Program-made: the position numbers and the translations under genes | Assembly (NCBI GenBank): GCA_964520445.1 | Contig: CAZFNU010000001.1 | Span: 1 to 30,698 of the forward strand | Origin: an uncultured Candidatus Saccharibacteria bacterium | GTDB taxonomy: Bacteria > Patescibacteriota > Minisyncoccia > UBA6257 > JAKLIH01 | DNA length: 30,698 nucleotides | Direction of reading: 5' to 3' | In this document: positions 1 to 29,879 of the stretch, piece by piece | How positions within the stretch are numbered: position 1 is the first letter of the stretch | How the letters are laid out: every line of letters starts with the position of its first letter | The notes under the pieces: model-generated | The model's input: the letters and a program-made list of their open reading frames with translations, nothing else | Told to the model about the DNA's origin: nothing | Database searches by the model: none

Positions 1-137
1 AATAGCATTTCAGAAATTAGAAGATCTTACTATCTATATTTATCCTATATTATCTGTTTATAGTCATATTAACAATAGGTAACCGGAAAGTTAAAAAACT
101 TGCAAAACAATTAAAAATGTAGTAATATATACAAATT

Positions 138-650
138 ATGATAAAAAGAATGCAAACCTTAAATATTGAATCAGAACCAACACTAAAAGTAGGAGTACCA
201 CAATCAAGCATTGCTTGATCCTATACTCTCCCCTTTAAAACAACTAGTTTTTATTTATTAGTTTCTGTCTTTGGTATTCTATTTGTTTGATTGGGGTTAA
301 ACTATATCCACAGCTACATCCTAACCGTAGTAGTTATCTTTGGTTTAATCATTGTTATTGGTAAAACACTGGTTAAGCAGGAATTAAATTTTCTTTTAAC
401 TGATGAATGCATTTCTTTAGAATCTCAGAAAATTCAGTGATCCAATATAAAACAAGCTATATTTCTTCCTTATCATAAAGATTATTTAATTGCTTTACAA
501 CCTATTACTTTTCCTTATACAAAAATGTATATTCCTGCTCCCAAAGAAAAAATAGAAGCAATAATGAATTTTCTTAATACTCATACTACTATTAAGGATT
601 TTAAAACCGAATCAGTTATAGACCGTTTAATTAGATTTTTGATTTTTTAA
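138..650 (+). CDS. Membrane protein, CPR DUF5673-like (170 aa, table 4)
   Basis: ATG 138 to TAA 648-650 with three in-frame TGA (216, 288, 438). Reads as SIA-W-SY, two TM helices, KIQ-W-SNIK and a C-terminal ESVIDRLIRFLIF, resembling a common Parcubacteria family. Absent from the ORF track because of the TGAs. Confidence 0.75.
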
Positions 651-2257: not shown

Positions 2258-2347
2258 GGTGAGGTGCCAGAGTGGTTGAATGGGGTGCTCTCGAAAAGCA
2301 TTGTATCTTAACCGGTACCGGAGGTCCGAATCCTCCCCTCACCGCCA
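2258..2347 (+). tRNA. tRNA-Ser(CGA)
   Basis: GGTGAGG acceptor, anticodon loop ctCGAaa, long variable arm, encoded CCA. T-loop is GTCCGAA rather than GTTCGAA. Confidence 0.93.
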
Positions 2348-2488: not shown

Positions 2489-3763
2489 ATGGATAATCAC
2501 TTAAGAATAATATTAGAAAGACAAAAATTAGAAAAAGAAAGGATTTTATCTTTCAAGGTCATAGATCGTCAAGAAAACCAAGAAGCACCAAAATATATAG
2601 ATAATGAACTAATAAAAGTAATTACTGGCCCTAGGCGTTGTGGTAAGTCAGTTTTTTCTTTTCAAGTTTTAAAAAATAGAGGATATAGTTTTGCTTATGC
2701 AAATTTTGAAGACGAAGCTCTTATTTCCGCTATTGATAATAATTATGATAAATTTACAGACGAATTAAACTTTGTTTATGGAAAAACAGACTATTTTGTT
2801 TTTGATGAAATACAAAATTTAGATAAATGAGAAATGTATTTAAATAAATTACAAAGAAGAGGATATAAAATAATAGTTACAGGATCTAACGCAAAATTAT
2901 TGAGTGGAGAATTAGCAACTTCTTTAACAGGAAGACATATTTCTATAGATTTATTTCCATTTAGCTTTCAAGAGTTCCTAGACTATAAATATCAAGAAAA
3001 AAAACCGGTAGAAACCCAATTGCCATACGAACTAGAATATTATTTAAAACAAGGTGGCTTCCCAGAAACTTTAAAACCAGAAATAGATTCATACTCTTAT
3101 CTAAATGGGCTTGTCCAAACAACGATACTAAAGGATGTTTTGTTTAGGCACGGACATAGTATTCAGAAAGGTAAAAGAATTGAGCTTTTAGCTAATTACC
3201 TAATTAATCATTGTTGTCAAGAGTTTAGCTATCGTAAATTAGCAATACCATTAGCCATCAAAAGCCACAATACTGCTGAAAAATATTTAGGATATCTACA
3301 AGAAACATTTTTATTCTTTACTTTAGGAAAATATTCGTTTAAATATTCCGAACATTTATCTTCTGATAAGAAAGTATATGTAATAGACAATGGGTTATTG
3401 ACTGCCAGAAATTTATTTAATTCTCCGAATTATGGAATATATTTCGAGAATTTAATTTTCCTAGAATTATTACGCAGAAACTATAGACCAAATTATGAAT
3501 TATTTTATTATAAAACTAAGGGTAATAAGGAGGTTGATTTTGTCTTAAAAGATCCTAATTCTAAGATTAACCAATTGATACAAGTTTGTTATGATATCCA
3601 GAATACCGAGACAGAAAAAAGAGAAGTTTCCGCCTTATTAAAAGCCAGCCAAGAATTACAGTGTAATAATTTGTTAATTATAACGAAAGACGTCGAAAAG
3701 GAAGAAATTAAAAATGAAACAATAATTAAATACATTCCTGCTTGGAAGTATCTTTTGAGTTAA
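2489..3763 (+). CDS. AAA+ ATPase, COG1373 type (AAA_14 + DUF4143), 424 aa
   Basis: Walker A GPRRCGKS, Walker B FVFDEIQ, TGSNA and GGFPE motifs, C-terminal EVDF. One TGA (2828-2830) sits at the conserved DEIQxxxxW position and joins the two track ORFs. Confidence 0.92.
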
Positions 3764-5295: not shown

Positions 5296-5826
5296 ATGAC
5301 TAAAGACAACTTTTCTAAAATTTATGATACGCATATGACAGAAATTTACCGTTTCTTCTATTTGCGTACTAATCAAAGAGAGCATTCTGAAGAACTAGCT
5401 TCAGAGGCCTTTTTTAAGTTTTGACAACATAATAAGAATAAGACCGAGAATTATATCAAAAATCCCCGGGCCTTTCTTTATCGTATTTCCAGAAACCTCT
5501 TAATAGATCACTTTAGAAAAAATAATCAAAACAAACAAGATATTTCTATTGAAGAATTCAATGATTCCCCAAATTTACCTCGTACCCTTGTTGATGACTC
5601 TTTCCGACAATCAGTAGAGCTAGAAGAAAAACAAAATAAGATAAAGAAAGCCTTACAAAAAATCAACCCAACCTATGCCGATATTATTATCTATTATTTT
5701 ATTGAAGGATTAGATAGCCATGAAATTGCTTCTATCTTAGAAAAAACAGAAAGTAATATCAGAGTTTTAATTCATAGATCTCTGGAATCATTAAAAAAAG
5801 AAATAGGAGAAAATATTGATTTATAA
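5296..5826 (+). CDS. ECF RNA polymerase sigma factor (176 aa, table 4)
   Basis: Region 2 YRFFYLRT..SEELASEAFFKF-W(TGA 5422)..AFLYRISRNLLIDHFRK; region 4 EGLDSHEIASILEKTESNIRVLIHRSL. Missed entirely by the ORF track. Confidence 0.9.
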
Positions 5827-6793: not shown

Positions 6794-7075
6794 ATGAAAA
6801 AAACAAAAAAAGTAATTAAAAAACAAACAAAAAAGATTTTGGAATATACTGCTGTATTTGAAAGGGAAGAAGACGGAAAATATACAGTTCGTTTTCCTAG
6901 CTTACCAGGGTGCTTTACTTATGGGAATAACTTAAAACATGCTCATGAAATGGCCAAGGAAGTTTTGGAATTATGATTAGAAGTACTAGAAGAGAACAAA
7001 AAGCCAATTCCGATTGAACGTAAGAATGTTATTGCCTGTATTAGTAAACTAAAAGTTTCTTTAGTCAAAAACTAA
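6794..7075 (+). CDS. hicB: HicB-family antitoxin (short form, 93 aa)
   Basis: YTAVFEREEDGKYTVRFPSLPGCFTYG..HAHEMAKEVLEL-W(TGA 6974)-LE..PIP; no C-terminal DNA-binding domain seen. Confidence 0.9.
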
Positions 7076-7084
7076 GATTATTTA

Positions 7085-7303
7085 ATGCCTTCTTTAAATT
7101 ATACTCAAATTACAAAAACACTAAAGAAACATGGTTTTATACTTATTCGGCAGCGAGGAAGTCATTTTATATGGCATAACTTTGAAAAAGAGATTACCGT
7201 CCCCGTTCCTTTTCATGGGAAATCAGAACCCATTGCTATAGGCACGGTTATGGATATAATTCGTCAATCAAGTATTCCCAAGGAGAAATTTTTTAAAAGA
7301 TAA
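7085..7303 (+). CDS. hicA: HicA-family mRNA interferase toxin
   Basis: LKKHGF..RQRGSHFI..ITVPVPFH..IAIGTVMDII, the canonical HicA pattern. Confidence 0.92.
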   Translation: MPSLNYTQITKTLKKHGFILIRQRGSHFIWHNFEKEITVPVPFHGKSEPIAIGTVMDIIRQSSIPKEKFFKR

Positions 7304-7436: not shown

Positions 7437-8336
7437 ATGACAAATTTTACTCACGAAAATCAAAATAGCGAGCAAAATAAGGGCCAAAACGACGTTTTAG
7501 CTACTCTTTTATCGTTTCGTGAAGTAAAACCTAGAGTTTTATGACAAGAAGCTAATAAAGGAAGATTATTAGAAAGAATTAGATTAGAACAACATACTGA
7601 AAGAAAAGCTAATTATAAGCCTAGTTATTTTATTAAACAAATGTCTTGATTTGCCAAACCAGTAGCTATTTCTTTAGCTAGTTTTGGCTTACTTAGTGGT
7701 ACTGTTATAGGAACTCAAGCAATTTCTCCTTTAAGTGTTTTTTACCCAGCTAAGATCTTGGTGGCTAATACCTATTATAGAGTATTACCTAAAGAAAAAC
7801 AGATAGAATATAGACTATCTCTAGCTAATGAGAAATTATCTGCTTTAAAAACACTTCAAAATGTAACAAAACCATCTAAAACTCGTCAGATATCTTACCT
7901 CACTAATTCTTTAACCTCAGATCTCTATTTCTCAGCTAATAATATGAAACAAATTAAGGATTTAAAGAAATTAGTCACAATCGCTCCTAAAATAGAAGCA
8001 GCTACTAAAAAATGAGCTAATGAAACCAGTACTAATCCTAAAATGGATGAAATTGTTAAAAATGTAAAACAAGAAATTCTAGCTATTATAATCGATACCG
8101 AAGATAAAGCTGATAATTGTCCTTCTTATTTATCTCAAAGAATAACAGAATTATCAGATCCTAGTAAGTTAGCTATCTATAACCCAGAGAACAAAGTAGC
8201 AGTAATAAATTTACTTACTGATGCTAAAAAAGCAATGTTATCCAATGATTGTCTGAAATCCTTACAACTTCTAGATCAGGTGGCAGAGTATCAACTTCAA
8301 TTGTTAATTAACCCTACTGGTTTGGAAACAAAGTAG
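7437..8336 (+). CDS. Single-TM protein, DUF5667-like, putative anti-sigma factor (299 aa, table 4)
   Basis: Three TGA (7542, 7647, 8013) join the fragments. N-terminal VKPRVL-W..KGRLLERI, one TM, then ISPLSVFYPAK resembling the LPGDxLYPxK motif, then a helical C-domain. Position downstream of an ECF sigma fits an anti-sigma role (inference). Confidence 0.7.
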
Positions 8337-8445
8337 TCAGGGATAATTAAAACCCCATTATCCTTAAACATTAAATTAAAAGTTTAAGGAAGGTCGGCTT
8401 ATGGATCGCATAAATAAACAAAAACAAATAAGTTTAAAATTTAAA

Positions 8446-10434
8446 ATGATGAATAAGAAATTCTTAACTCTATTCGTTGCTGCTACTTTCGTAGTATCAT
8501 CTTTTGCACCTTTTGCAAAAGCTGCAACAATAGACGAGCAAATTGCTGCTTTACTAGCACAAATTGCTGCCTTGCAAGGCCAAGTCGCAACATCAACAGG
8601 TACAGCAACAGGCACAACCTGCTTCTCAAATAATTTGAGCTATGGTATGACCCATGCTGATGTTAAGTTATTACAAGAAAAATTAGGTGTTTCCAACACT
8701 GGCTATTTTGGTCCTTTGACCTTAGCTGCTGTTAAAACATATCAAGCAAACAATGCTATCTCTCCAGTTGCTGGTTACGTAGGTCCTTTGACCCGCGCTT
8801 CCTTAAATGCTAAATATTGCACTACATCTACATCTACATCAACCGTTCCAGGTTGTGCTTCTGGTGCAACATATAGCGCAACAACTGGCGCTCTTTGTAC
8901 TACAGCTACATCAACCGTTCCAGGTTGTGCTGCTGGTGCATTATTCAGTGCTACAACAGGTGCAAGCTGTACAACAGGTACAACTTCAGCTAGTGGTACT
9001 GCAACAGAAGGTACATTAGTAAATACAACTTCTGCAACTTTCGTTGAGACTTCTTTAAAGAAAGGAGACGTCAACAAAGCTATCTTAGCTACAACAGTTG
9101 AAGCTAGAAATTCCGACATTACTCTTAAAAGAGCTGATGTTGAATTAGCCGCTACTTCAATCCAACCATGAAAGACATTCTCATCTTTTGGTTTGTATGC
9201 TAACGGAGTTTTAGTTAAAGAAATTTCAGCCGCAAAAGAGAACTTTATTGAAACCACATTCGTAACAAAATACGTTTTGAGATTCGATAATATCTCTATA
9301 GTTGTTGCTAAAGGACAAAAAGTTGATTTAGTAGTTAAAACAACCGTTTTAGCAAATCCAGAAAATACAGCTATTACAACTTTCAAGTTCTTAGCTAGCG
9401 CTATCCGTGGAGTTGATGGAGCAGGTATTGATCAATACACCTCTACAGAAATTACCAATACAATCTCTGGTGATGCCGTAGCCGCTTCTTCTACAGGTAC
9501 ATTAGTATGATCTCTTAATACTGCATCTCCAAAAACAGGTTTTGTTACTGGTAGTGCAACCGTTGTTTCTTCAGACAAGACATTAGCAATTTATGATATC
9601 AAAGCTGAAAACAGAGACGTTACTATCAAAACATTACTTGTTACCATGACTGATGCCGATACAATTGTTAGCGCTGTTAAATTATATGATGGTGCTACAT
9701 TGTTAGCTAGCGTTGCTGGTGCAAATGGTGATGTTACCTTTGATAATTTAGCTATTCTAATTGCTAAAGATACAACCAAAACATTAACTGTTAAGGTTGA
9801 TTTGAAGCCATTAGCTGCTGAGGGTAAGTTAATAGCTGCTGTAGTTACTGGTAGTGCTGCTAAAGTTTCTGCCTTTGACTCAACAGATGCTATTTTAGGC
9901 GCAAAATCATGTGGTGGAGGAGAATGTATTACAGGTACAGCTACAGGTAAAACATTAACAGCTTACACAAAAGCTCCATTGTTAACCTTTGTATCCTCAT
10001 CATTCACTAAGACAGTACAAGCTGGTCAAGCTGACCAAGGTGATGCTATAATCGTATTCGATGTCACCGCCGTTGGTGGAGATATCTTCATCAATAAAGC
10101 TGCTACCGCACTTGGTACTATCACAGTTGATGACGGAGTAGCCGCTACAGATACCTTTGCTGGTGGTCTAGGTACTTATACCTTTACATCTACAGCTGAG
10201 GCTGCTTCTGCAGACGTATATGTTGTTAGATCTGGTCAAACAGCTAGATTTACAATTTCAGGTCATGTAATTAATAAAGCTACAACAGGCTATATGCACA
10301 TGGCTATGGATAAGTTAATCTGAGGTACCGCTGTTGGAACCCCAACAACCTATAACTTATTAGGTATTTCAGCCACAGTTAATTATGATTTATCTAACTT
10401 TATAACAACAGACATTTCCTTAACACACGTCTAG
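8446..10434 (+). CDS. Secreted surface/S-layer-like protein with peptidoglycan-binding domain (662 aa, table 4)
   Basis: Signal peptide, QIAALLAQIAALQ helix, PG_binding_1-like DVKLLQEKL..GYFGPLTLAAVKTYQ..GYVGPLTRASLN, Cys repeats, then Ala/Thr-rich beta domains. TGA at 9169, 9508, 10321; TAG 10432. Confidence 0.88.
8836..8973 (+). repeat. Intragenic tandem repeat, 69-nt period (STVPGCxxGAxxSATTGAxC x2)
   Basis: acatcaaccgttccaggttgtgct recurs 69 nt apart; each unit has a Cys pair. Confidence 0.8.
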
Positions 10435-26874: not shown

Positions 26875-26946
26875 TCCGCGGTAGTTGAGTGGTACAACGC
26901 CTCCCTGTTAAGGAGGATTTCGCAGGTTCGAGTCCTGCCCGCGGAG
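26875..26946 (+). tRNA. tRNA-Asn(GTT), probable integration site
   Basis: TCCGCGG/CCGCGGA acceptor, CCTCC-ctGTTaa-GGAGG anticodon arm, GCAGG-TTCGAGT-CCTGC T-arm. Confidence 0.95.
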
Positions 26947-28410
26947 CATTGTAGGACAGTTGTTAAATTTGAGCATAGTATTAAACGGTTCTCGTACCGT
27001 GAATACTAGCTCTTTTTCTTTTAACTGAAGGTTCTGAAGTACGAAACTTAGAAGTTGCTTTTTCTCTTCCACTTCAGAACTTTCAAATATTTCTCTAGCT
27101 CTCTTAGCTAAATTAAGCACCAAACTAGCGGTTATATAGAAATTTTCATCTGCATTGGTGTGTCTCGACATTTCTTCTTGTATATCTGCTTGTTTATTTT
27201 TTCATTCTTTTAATTTAGCATTAAATACATCAGGAGGGATCTGTCCGTCAGCTAATAAATTAAAAGCATTGCTTATTCTGGTATCTATTTGGCTATACTC
27301 CTTTTGTAAATTGTCTAAAGCTAATTGATGAAATTTATTTTTAGATTCATTAGTACTCTTTAAGTTTTCTGTTATTTTATTTATTTGATCATCCGTGAAT
27401 TTCATATTATCTAAAACATTATATATCGGAGTCAAAAGATCTTCTTCTTTACAGTACAATACTTTCTTATGAAGTCTCCTATAATTTGTACAATGATAAT
27501 AATGATGACCCTTAGAAGTTTCAGGAGTTATCATACAGCCACATTCTGAACAGGTGATCATTCCTCTGAAAATATATGGTTTGGCTGCATAATGAAAGGG
27601 TTTCTTGTGATAACCTAATGATACGGCTTGGCATCTATTAAACAAATCTTTACTAATTAAGGGCTCATATTTATGAGGGTATAATTGATCTTTAATTTTC
27701 ATAACTCCATAATAAAACGGGTTATTAATTATTTTGTGTATCATACTCTTGGGTAAGGGATTATGTACTTCGGTATTTCCAGTTAGTCCCATAGTTTCCA
27801 TTTCTTTTGTAATATCTAATAATGAATAATTCCCCGTAGCATACATTTCAAATATTCTAATGATATATGATGCTCTTTCTGGATCTGGAATTACATCTTT
27901 ATCTTCGTTTTTTGTGCTTATATAGCCAATAGGGGACTTTCCAATTCATTCTCCATTTTTAATTTTATTTTCATAAGCCCTTTTAACACTATCACTAATA
28001 GAATCTGAATAATATTTAGCCAAGCTTACACCTATAGTAAACCTAAATAAATCAGTAGCAGGTGAGTCTTTAGTTAATATTATATTATCTGAAGGGAAAT
28101 GAAGCTCTATTTTGCCCTCTTTCCTTAATTCTTCCAATGTAACTAATTCTTTTGTAAAATTTCTTATCAATCTATCAATTTTATCGCAACATAAGGAAAG
28201 AGGCTCTTTAGAAGTTTTTAATGTTTCCACAACTTTGCTAAATTCTTCCCGTTCTGTTTTGAAAGCACTTTCATCGAAACTTAACTCTTTTGCAATAACG
28301 AGATTCTTTTCTATGGCATATTTTCTTAATCTTAATACTTGAGCTGGCAAAGAATTTCCCGCTTCTTTTTGTTCTTCAGTTGAAACTCTTGCCAATAGTA
28401 TAGCTTTCAT
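26908..28410 (-). CDS. Large serine recombinase (resolvase + recombinase + Zn-ribbon; 500 aa, table 4)
   Basis: MKAILLARVSTEEQ..SLPAQ catalytic Ser motif; KIDRLIRN; NGE-W(TGA 27948)-IGKSPIGY; NNPFYYG; CSECGC..YYHC Zn ribbon; second TGA 27204; ends LRGQDSNLRNPP* antisense to tRNA-Asn. Confidence 0.93.
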
Positions 28411-28805: not shown

Positions 28806-29219
28806 TTATTCTTTACTATTTTTGTGTCTTTCGGCAATATCTGTCAGTGCTTCTGCTATCTCTCTTAGATTATCTCGCTTAGTTTCGTCAACTGTTTCAA
28901 CTCGATCACCAAATTCTTCTCTACGTTTGCATTTCAAGTATTTGAATGCTATATCTGGGTCATCTAGGTGTTCAATAATAGTTCGCCTTGCTTTCAATAT
29001 TGGGGTTTGTTTCAACAGCGTTTTTCGCTCCAGAAACCCAGGATGTTGTACTTGATAATTATATAGTGTAGATTCAGAAATATTCGCATAAAAACAACTC
29101 TCTTTGTCGGTTCCATCAAGTGCGAAAACCTCTTCTAGTTTCTGGAGTGTTTCTTTTGTCATTTTTGTTGGTCGCCCCACAATATTTTCTTTTTTTATTA
29201 AATTTTGATTTTCCTCCAT
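28806..29219 (-). CDS. Phage terminase small subunit-like HTH protein (137 aa)
   Basis: GRPTKMTKETLQKLEEVF..TDKESCFYANISESTLYNY..PGF.E..LK.TP.LKARRTI..KYLKCK..EEF, a TerS-like pattern. Confidence 0.7.
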   Translation of the reverse strand: MEENQNLIKKENIVGRPTKMTKETLQKLEEVFALDGTDKESCFYANISESTLYNYQVQHPGFLERKTLLKQTPILKARRTIIEHLDDPDIAFKYLKCKRREEFGDRVETVDETKRDNLREIAEALTDIAERHKNSKE

Positions 29220-29489
29220 TTTTTTAATTTTAATCTTAATTATAACAAAATCTTTTTCTATTCTTTTATATATCCCTAGATTAGGAAACTCGGATTGAAG
29301 CCCCCCTTACCCCCACAGAGAAAAAATAGGTTTGTTTCTTTTGTTGAAACTAGTTGTGAGAGTAAGGACTTTCCAAGCTTTATATATCCCTGAGATTGAG
29401 GTCTCCTCGTATAAGCTTAGCCTTCTGAACTTTTTTTAATTCGCACTCAGAATCTATCCCCTTACGAATAACTCATAAAATTGAGTTTG

Positions 29490-29549
29490 TAGCGAGATTG
29501 GGACTCGAACCCAATATTATTGATTTGTGTTACCGTTACACCACTCGCT
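29490..29549 (-). ncRNA. tRNA-like element lacking the anticodon arm
   Basis: AGCGAG-TG-GTGT(aacggta)ACAC D-arm, 11-nt A-rich linker, ATTGGG-TTCGAGT-CCCAAT T-arm, CTCGCT-A. Confidence 0.65.
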
Positions 29550-29651
29550 TTTTTGCTGATTTTGACATTTAAGCCTATCTATTATTTGTTTTAATATATT
29601 TATCCTATTTTGATATTTTGATCAGTTTTAAGTCATTTTGACCCCCTAAAA

Positions 29652-29879
29652 CTACTCGCCACAGCAGGCTTGGGGGGTGTTTCGAGTATAAAGAAATCTA
29701 AGGATTTGCTTTTTATCGTTTTTATCGTATTCCTCAGGGTTGACCAGTTCTTCAAAGTTCTTTTTTATAACCCTTTTATCGAAGTGTCTTTTTCTGACAA
29801 CATTAGCTATACAGATAGAGTCTGTTCAATAAGGATTTAATGCTTTTGTTTTTAGAAAATTTGCCTTTAATGATTTCAT
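29652..29879 (-). CDS. Small phage-type hypothetical protein (75 aa, table 4)
   Basis: MKSLKANFLKTKALNPY-W(TGA 29828)-TDSICIANVV..NFEELVNPEEYDKNDKKQILRFL; TAG 29652-29654. Not in the ORF track. Confidence 0.7.

Follow-up and report, generated by a model that had tools for sequence, protein, structure and literature searches.

tRNA-shaped processing signals without an anticodon arm are already documented in plant mitochondria, whose t-elements come closest to the locus reported here. t-elements are degenerate tRNAs, some of them lacking the anticodon arm, in which the GGTTCRANYCC motif is kept (PMC1920247, PMC5499578). Their termini coincide with mRNA ends that were mapped and that RNase P or RNase Z generates (PMC1920247; summarised in PMC5499578), and they are proposed or shown to direct the cleavage by these enzymes; examples are those of nad6, ccmC and cox1 of A. 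thaliana and orf138 of Brassica (PMC1920247, PMC5499578). The present analysis concerns a 30,698-nt stretch of DNA from an uncultured sludge bacterium (Candidatus Saccharibacteria; contig CAZFNU010000001.1 of assembly GCA_964520445.1; G+C content 32%), hereafter called the window, which carries on its minus strand a 60-nt tRNA-like module without anticodon arm (29490..29549) inside an integrated, phage-related element. The module is real and tRNA-derived, and its shape is conserved across the two lineages that are readable. We tentatively regard it as a t-element-like cis signal for cleavage by RNase P and an RNase Z-type enzyme.

tRNA-like handles on longer RNAs are likewise known from eukaryotic nuclei and herpesviruses. 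In mascRNA of MALAT1 and in the TMER heads of murine gammaherpesvirus 68 a tRNA-like fold at the end of a longer RNA acts as the signal for RNase P and RNase Z; these RNAs are eukaryotic or eukaryotic-viral, in most of them the anticodon stem is reduced but still present, and in sequence they are not related to the module. Mobile phage-related elements, to which the module also belongs, provide further small RNAs that host RNase P processes out of longer transcripts, namely the regulatory CI RNA of the satellite phage P4 and the C4 RNA of P1/P7 (PMC5499578). Their substrates are hairpin-like and have no T-loop equivalent (PMC5499578), whereas the module possesses a full T arm and elbow. A literature search found no contiguous equivalent described for a bacterial mobile element or phage.

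Read 5' to 3' on the minus strand (29549..29490), the 60-mer consists of the 5' acceptor strand (AGCGAG, 29544-29549), U8-G9 (29542-29543), a D arm with a 4-bp stem (GUGU-AACGGUA-ACAC, 29527-29541), an unpaired spacer of 11 nt at the place of the anticodon and variable arms (AAAUCAAUAAU, 29516-29526), a T arm with a 6-bp stem (AUUGGG-UUCGAGU-CCCAAU, 29497-29515), the 3' strand of the 6-bp acceptor stem (CUCGCU, 29491-29496) and the discriminator A (29490). An earlier interpretation made from the letters of the window, referred to as the sequence-only reading, had described a 60-nt tRNA-like sequence without anticodon arm, and both the sequence and RNAfold agree with it: the described fold is the minimum-energy as well as the centroid structure of the 60-mer (-15.4 kcal/mol). 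Its stability is unremarkable (z = -2.05; 8 of 200 shuffles were equally stable).

Scoring by Infernal and ARAGORN, which the sequence-only reading had proposed as a check, gave a divided outcome. The tRNA model of Rfam (RF00005) aligned with the 60-mer over its entire length (model positions 1-71) with a score of 28.5 bits, corresponding to E = 6.6e-4 in a search of 501 nt against 4227 families. The score misses the gathering score of 29 by half a bit, because the anticodon arm is deleted and one acceptor position is absent, and ARAGORN called neither a tRNA nor a tmRNA (transfer-messenger RNA) at the 60-mer. Since RF00005 aligns over the full length at such a score, the resemblance to tRNA is homology and not chance. 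The 60-mer is furthermore the sole copy of the GGTTCRANYCC motif in the window outside canonical tRNAs. A 514-nt Logan contig from an independent sludge run spans 29313-29826 with 0 differences to the window, so the 60-mer is not an assembly artefact; the assembly gap that had been considered as a possible refutation is contradicted by the independent contigs that confirm the sequence. In unrelated bacteria and in one phage, genes for tRNA-Gln, tRNA-Gly(UCC) and tRNA-Met contain the same D- and T-arm sequences at full-length spacing, which suggests that the short-D-loop class of tRNAs (as tRNA-Gln and tRNA-Gly) is the likely source of the module.

The module shares with t-elements the degenerate tRNA fold in which an acceptor-like stem and a GGTTCRANYCC T arm are kept and another arm is lost, as well as the location beside protein-coding genes; t-elements are embedded in longer transcripts. 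In contrast to t-elements, which belong to plant organelles and whose ends were mapped experimentally, the module is known from sequence alone, resides in a bacterial integrative phage-related element and heads a conserved structured RNA. The two have no evolutionary relation beyond their common tRNA descent. Judged by the common structural criteria, t-elements are the class that the module would work most like.

With canonical tRNA (RF00005) the module has in common the acceptor, U8, A14, G18-G19, the D stem, the UUCGAnU T arm, the G53:C61 pair and the discriminator. However, its acceptor stem comprises 6 instead of 7 bp, its T stem 6 instead of 5 bp, and without an anticodon arm it cannot decode; given the score below threshold, the lack of an ARAGORN call and 11 unpaired nt in place of the anticodon and variable arms, membership in the canonical class was rejected. 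The tRNA-like domain of tmRNA also combines acceptor, T arm and a D-loop analogue without an anticodon arm. In tmRNA, unlike in the module, the halves are split by the mRNA-like domain and pseudoknots, and a G3:U70 pair confers alanine identity; this class was rejected because pair 3 of the module is C:G, its halves are contiguous, a tag region is absent and ARAGORN reported no tmRNA. Y RNA and YrlA form a Ro-binding helix from their 5' and 3' ends, carry the tRNA-like domain internally, and their gene adjoins rsr (Ro60). This class was likewise rejected, as the ends of the module form the acceptor stem and no Ro/TROVE domain was detected in the five element proteins scanned. Viral 3' tRNA-like structures of the turnip yellow mosaic virus and brome mosaic virus type (TYMV/BMV) are located at the 3' terminus of the genome and have a pseudoknotted acceptor arm ending in CCA. 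The module is internal, its acceptor is an ordinary helix and CCA is not encoded, which excluded this class as well.

A single syntenic relative, L053 (NCBI assembly GCA_043955465.1), was reached through the protein sequence of the terminase small subunit (TerS) encoded next to the module; a Logan contig (L054) is an identical copy of this locus. The gene order is that of the window (small open reading frame (ORF), gap, terS, small ORF, recombinase) and the element is likewise located at a tRNA-Asn. The proteins share 60% (TerS), 58% (recombinase) and 51% (small ORF) identity with those of the window, and the non-coding gap as a whole aligns at about 78% identity. The L053 module (5664-5749) reads AGCAAG UG GUG-A AAAGG (26-nt insertion) AA-CAC AAAUAUUUAUU AUUGGG UUCGAUU CCCAAU CUUGCU A. 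Its minimum-energy fold has the same architecture: acceptor and T arm comprise 6 bp each, the spacer again measures 11 nt, and the inserted hairpin lengthens the D stem. The 26-nt hairpin insertion follows directly after G19 and thus occupies the D-loop pocket, whose length differs among natural tRNAs. As both lineages are without the anticodon arm, its loss is, on the comparison of these two loci, older than their split. Close relatives carrying a full tRNA had been named as evidence that would speak against the sequence-only reading; the sole relative found carries the truncated form.

The segments of the module differ in how far they are conserved between the window and L053. The leader shows 58-60% identity and the 11-nt spacer 64% (4 of its 11 positions differ), whereas the T arm is identical at 95% with one change at the variable loop position 59. 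The acceptor strands share 83-86%, and their sole differences constitute a compensatory change of the G4:C pair to A4:U. Within the trailer, 29390-29439 is the most conserved stretch (90%). Both lineages keep U8, G9, A14, G18-G19, G53:C61 and U54-U55-C56-R57-A58, that is, the hallmarks of tRNA including the UUCRAnY T loop. The 6+6 split that the sequence-only reading took to preserve the 12-bp acceptor/T helix recurs in L053. Its further statement of an intact D arm applies to the window and is not a conserved feature, given the insertion in the D loop of L053, where one D-stem pair is also lost. What is conserved, as far as this alignment indicates, is the acceptor/T helix together with the elbow, and not the D-arm sequence or the spacer.

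If acceptor, T arm and discriminator (32 nt together) had diverged like the leader, at most three changes would be expected with P = 1.4e-4; at the average divergence of the whole block the value is P = 0.057. In further variants, seen in part in three metagenome runs, the D loop, spacer, leader, trailer loops and one loop-closing pair of hairpin H1 (see below) are altered, and 7 of the 8 visible differences fall at unpaired positions (loops, linkers).

These data bear on the notion, raised among the alternatives, that the module is a decaying tRNA pseudogene without any function. The absent anticodon arm, the D arm of L053 disrupted by an insertion and the lack of the module in two related elements (L081 and L082) would be in line with decay. 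However, the same deletion is common to lineages whose neighbouring proteins are only 51-60% identical, and the T arm and the acceptor, the latter fully paired through a compensatory change, have been preserved next to a poorly conserved leader. Decay without function therefore appears improbable, and the remark in the sequence-only reading that the module is unlike randomly decayed sequence is borne out by the layout kept in the relative, the contrast between T arm and leader and the compensatory acceptor pair. The covariation among homologues that had been suggested as a further check was found, in the form of a single pair in one relative.

The module heads a conserved structured non-coding block of about 255 nt between the small ORF and terS, a position compatible with a t-element-like role beside a gene. 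The trailer part of about 190 nt (29290-29489 (-) in the window, 5750-5945 in L053) contains four helices, on which RNAalifold and separate folds of each lineage agree, with four compensatory pairs and a G-rich box, GGGGGUAAGGGGGG. Hairpin H1 (CUCA...UGAG, 29472..29485 (-)) was predicted by RNAalifold from the window and L053 and has an identical stem and a varying loop. RNAalifold furthermore predicted hairpin H2 (AUUCGU...GCGAAU, 29439..29469 (-)) with one one-sided change from U-G to U-A, and hairpin H3 (outer stem CUAAGCU/AGCUUGG, inner stem GAGA/UCUC, 29373..29420 (-)) with one compensatory change from G:C to A:U; H3 lies inside the best-conserved trailer stretch (29390-29439). In helix H4 (29305..29367 (-)) the C/U-rich CCUUACUCUC (29358-29367) and the G-rich box GGGGGUAAGG (29305-29314) form the two paired strands, between which a variable AU-rich insert is situated; H4 was predicted independently in both lineages and by RNAalifold, and contains three consecutive compensatory pairs (UUA:UAA versus CCU:AGG). 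Altogether, 40 of the 47 bp of the module and H1-H4 are identical, five are compensatory double changes (acceptor 1, H3 1, H4 3), one is changed on one side with pairing kept and one is broken. Compared with dinucleotide shuffles, the full-length block folds with z = -2.9 in the window and z = -5.4 in L053. A comparison of the block with Rfam revealed no family besides tRNA, and the trailer of about 190 nt is a candidate for an unclassified structured RNA in its own right.

Upstream of the module, TATATT within the conserved TAAATATATT (29593..29598 (-)) is a candidate -10 element about 43 nt from the first base of the module. It aligns with the -10 element of a sigma-70-like promoter in L053 that matches at 10 of 12 positions (TTGATA-16-TATACT, 5590-5617) and lies 46 nt upstream of the module there. 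The leader between the candidate -10 and the module (29550-29592) is poorly conserved. The -35 region of the window is unconserved and the promoter scan of the window made no call at the candidate -10; the window promoter is thus best termed putative. Further upstream, a hairpin followed by a U-run (CUGCU-GUGGCG-AGUAG-UUUU, 29648..29667 (-)) overlaps the stop codon of the small ORF and is a possible weak terminator. L053 has CUACU...AGUAG-UUUU at the aligned place, where the A/G change keeps the pairing via G-U; the terminator scan did not call the window hairpin.

Two copies of a repeat are conserved in L053 as well. The first (CCTCAATCTCAGGGATATATAAAG, 29378..29401 (-)) overlaps the 3' side of H3 and the second (CCTAATCTAGGGATATATAAAAG, 29263..29285 (-)) is situated about 45 nt upstream of the terS start. 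Both contain the 22-23-nt motif CCT(C)AATCT(C)AGGGATATATAAA(A)G and could be promoters or protein-binding sites.

From the sequence, the fold, the tRNA descent, the conservation and the setting, which are observed, we infer every step of the following mechanism. A tRNA gene of the short-D-loop class would have lost its anticodon arm before the two lineages diverged, and the remnant would then have been kept as a 'top-half' tRNA mimic comprising the 12-bp acceptor/T helix and the D-loop/T-loop elbow. Minus-strand transcription would start at a promoter located some 45 nt before the module, RNase P would cut at its first base (29549) and an RNase Z-type enzyme after the discriminator A (29490). 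These cuts would detach the leader and provide the downstream structured RNA of about 190 nt, or the terS leader, with a defined 5' end, and a short tRNA-like RNA with a CCA tail may be released in addition.

Bacterial RNase P, RNase Z and the CCA-adding enzyme use the stacked 12-bp helix, the T loop and the elbow, both in tRNA precursors and in minihelix substrates; McClain et al. 1987 is among the works cited in PMC5499578. We favour the processing signal because the features that have been kept (12-bp helix, T loop, G18-G19) fit a use by these enzymes, because the setting resembles that of a tRNA precursor (weakly conserved leader, promoter-like site upstream, CCA not encoded after the discriminator), because the block downstream is a conserved structured RNA with compensatory pairs, because the differences in other metagenome variants fall mostly in loops or linkers, and because the t-elements provide a precedent. 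CCA is also missing from 3 of the 4 host tRNA genes, and the host must therefore cut tRNA 3' ends endonucleolytically and add CCA.

Several observations weigh against this interpretation. The module region was present in no RNA run. Two independent lineages were readable in full, and the covariation of the acceptor consists of a single pair that could have arisen by chance (a rough, uncomputed estimate of 0.1-0.25). A third variant (sludge runs X1/X2) has about four unread changes in 29490-29521; this range includes the 3' acceptor strand, the T arm and some of the spacer, so that the changes could break the stems. The L053 module yielded no RF00005 match at E <= 1, and the pairing probability of its T stem amounts to only about 0.5 because the 26-nt insertion can pair elsewhere. 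The recombinase-related elements L081 (at tRNA-Asn) and L082 (at tRNA(UCA)) are without the module, which is hence dispensable for this type of element. Furthermore, since identity reaches about 78% across the entire intergenic block, part of its conservation may reflect functions at the DNA level (promoter, packaging site, protein-binding repeats). The interest of the finding is limited by this very small comparative sample, and its function is deduced from sequence.

Rather unlikely, in our judgement, is that the block constitutes a single stable non-coding RNA (ncRNA) of about 255-300 nt, in which the tRNA-like head remains uncut on top of H1-H4 and which would regulate late genes or packaging or recruit a tRNA-binding factor. 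The covarying structure continues unbroken from the module to the G-rich box, the block is always found between the small ORF and terS, and in L082 the small-ORF homologue precedes a non-coding region of about 350 nt that differs from the block and appears structured by eye. However, the scans of the window and L053 recognised no terminator where the block ends, the block has no match to an Rfam family, and cleavage of the head would be expected because a discriminator followed by an unpaired trailer is a normal RNase Z substrate. We also consider it unlikely that the block represents an undescribed class of phage or satellite ncRNA in which a tRNA 'top half' is fused to a domain of about 190 nt, acting in trans on a tRNA-binding factor or taking part in the control of terS and packaging instead of just marking a cleavage site; RNase P, the CCA-adding enzyme, EF-Tu or an acceptor-end toxin might be its partners.

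The conservation could alternatively belong to the DNA, namely to a packaging site (cos/pac) and late-promoter region upstream of terS in which the tRNA remnant is a passenger without RNA function. Such an interpretation would profit from the location of the block directly upstream of terS, from the two copies of the 22-nt motif and the G-rich box in an AT-rich genome, which we take to recall terminase-binding repeats and cohesive-end sites, and from the conservation of the entire block and not of the module alone. Nevertheless, it predicts neither five compensatory double changes in helices, the acceptor included, nor a divergence that spares exactly the positions of tRNA tertiary interactions, and phages with homologous terS genes are without a similar block. 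Taking these points together, conservation mainly at the DNA level seems unlikely.

The sequence-only reading had put forward a processing signal or a decoy. The former fits the kept features and the t-element precedent and is the reading favoured here, whereas the latter, in the form of an anticodon-nuclease decoy, found no support: the module has no anticodon stem-loop and so does not mimic the substrate of such a nuclease, and the sequence of its spacer is unconserved. In a wider sense the module might be a decoy or sponge that draws off host factors such as defence toxins, which bind or attack tRNAs. The conserved half with acceptor, T arm and elbow is the part recognised by many tRNA-binding enzymes, and the element is mobile and phage-related. 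A decoy for acceptor-end enzymes is conceivable, and among toxins only those aimed at the acceptor end could be affected. However, Pfam and PHROGs scans of the element proteins identified no defence or counter-defence gene beside the module, and a single-copy gene would need very high expression to compete with cellular tRNA. We therefore give little credence to the decoy in general.

It is highly improbable that the module is a tRNA-like pseudo-attachment site, used by this recombinase or by another one that targets tRNAs: recombinases of this family are found at tRNA 3' ends in four loci and the T arm with the 3' acceptor strand is the best-conserved part of the module, but beyond the generic GGTTCGAGTCC the module and the tRNA-Asn target have little sequence in common, and a DNA site needs neither a complementary 5' acceptor strand nor covariation. 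The possibility that UCA in the spacer serves as an anticodon for reassigned UGA was rejected, given AUU at this place in L053, UAA in the X1 variant and the missing anticodon stem.

The genes around the module place it in an integrated, phage-related element, as the TerS homologue and the recombinase at the tRNA-Asn are encoded downstream of it; this corresponds to the mobile element in which the sequence-only reading had located it. On the minus strand the order is an ORF running off the window end, the 75-aa ORF, a gap of about 430 nt with the 60-mer, TerS (137 aa), a 71-aa ORF and the recombinase. TerS (28806..29219 (-); PHROGs phrog_4102, E = 1.1e-14) is encoded directly downstream of the non-coding block. 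In phage contigs its homologues immediately precede the genes for large terminase, portal and capsid. Unlike all these phage relatives, the window and L053 have terS followed by a small ORF and the recombinase, without a large terminase, and this layout could be that of a satellite-like element with no terminase gene but its own terS, or of a prophage with its attachment site between terS and terL; the remainder of the element lies outside the window, whose source contig measures 50.6 kb. The small ORF directly upstream of the block (29652..29879 (-), 75 aa, one in-frame TGA) has homologues in L053 (83 aa) and L082 (unannotated). It belongs to no Pfam or PHROGs family, and in a profile search the L053 protein itself was its sole match.

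The large serine recombinase (26908..28410 (-), 500 aa, two in-frame TGA codons) contains the Pfam domains Resolvase, Recombinase and Zn_ribbon_recom. Its 3' end overlaps the 3' end of the host tRNA-Asn(GUU) (26875..26947 (+); called by ARAGORN and by Rfam at 69.5 bits), at which the element is integrated, and its last 13 or so codons are the reverse complement of the T arm and acceptor of this tRNA. Recombinases of this family end in or against the 3' end of a tRNA on the opposite strand, which is tRNA-Asn in the window, L053 and L081 and tRNA(UCA) in L082. Elsewhere in the window (2258-2347) ARAGORN called a 90-nt tRNA-Ser(CGA) that the Rfam tRNA model did not report at its gathering threshold.

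UGA is a sense codon in the window, since ORFs merge across TGA. The first TGA of the recombinase corresponds to tryptophan (Trp) in 113 of 119 homologues, the second aligns with Tyr, Leu, Phe or Trp and never with glycine (Gly), and the TGA of the 75-aa ORF aligns to Trp in L053. The alignment of the recombinase family and a Trp-type tRNA(UCA) at a related locus point to UGA being read as Trp (code 4-like) and not as Gly (code 25), at least in the genes of the element. A host SCP-domain protein is ambiguous in this respect. The sequence-only reading had proposed a search for homologues in phages of the candidate phyla radiation (CPR); this framing has to be adjusted, since a CPR origin would suggest code 25 and since the visible part of the element combines terS with the recombinase and is without a large terminase.

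Searches beyond L053 were negative. A loop-anchored DNA pattern with truncated spacing found no truncated relatives in GTDB genomes, JGI metagenomes and IMG/VR, the pattern being too strict as the D loop is unconserved; its matches were full-length tRNA-Gln, tRNA-Gly and tRNA-Met, high-GC loci, a tRNA-Leu variable arm and one odd viral tRNA-like sequence. Scans of IMG/VR with T arm plus trailer, T arm plus acceptor and trailer motifs returned no relatives, and two T-arm matches there proved to be aberrant tRNAs in jumbo-phage tRNA clusters. A BLAST search of the block against the INPHARED phage collection had no match, a TerS-based search of IMG/VR found no relative, and no block resembling that of the module was present in phages with homologous terS genes.

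Some loci encountered in these comparisons deserve mention in their own right. A viral unit of about 62 nt (L050 7450-7492, identical to L052 8085-8127) has normal D and T arms and a short irregular middle, and irregular tRNA-like genes occur in jumbo-phage tRNA clusters (L083 2320-2400, L084 7900-8030); none of them was called by ARAGORN and none is related to the window module. In L053 (~8165-9000 (-)) an insertion of about 790 nt apparently interrupts the tRNA-Asn(GUU) beside the recombinase, immediately behind the anticodon loop. The insertion encodes a PDDEXK_5 endonuclease in the same orientation and resembles an intron that harbours a homing endonuclease; neither a tRNA nor a known intron was called at this place by ARAGORN or Rfam (E <= 1). 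The sister element L081, from the same assembly as L053, has its tRNA-Asn at 7070-7141 and contains an Rfam LOOT RNA (RF03000; 1-112 (-), 61.3 bits, above threshold) that is cut by the contig end. L082 encodes the unannotated small-ORF homologue at ~129-340 (+) (MKSIQRRFEAITSKNPY(TGA)SSYICF...), whose TGA matches that of the window ORF in position. The subsequent region of about 350 nt is without a tRNA-like module and shows a long hairpin by eye (GUGCUAAUG...CAUUAGCAU); the Trp-type tRNA with anticodon UCA of this element is located at 3109-3181.

If the module is indeed cut by RNase P and RNase Z, the mobile element of an uncultured lineage with recoded UGA would use the tRNA maturation of its host on its own transcripts, beside a packaging gene. 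In that case the module would also provide a simple search model for further elements of this kind.

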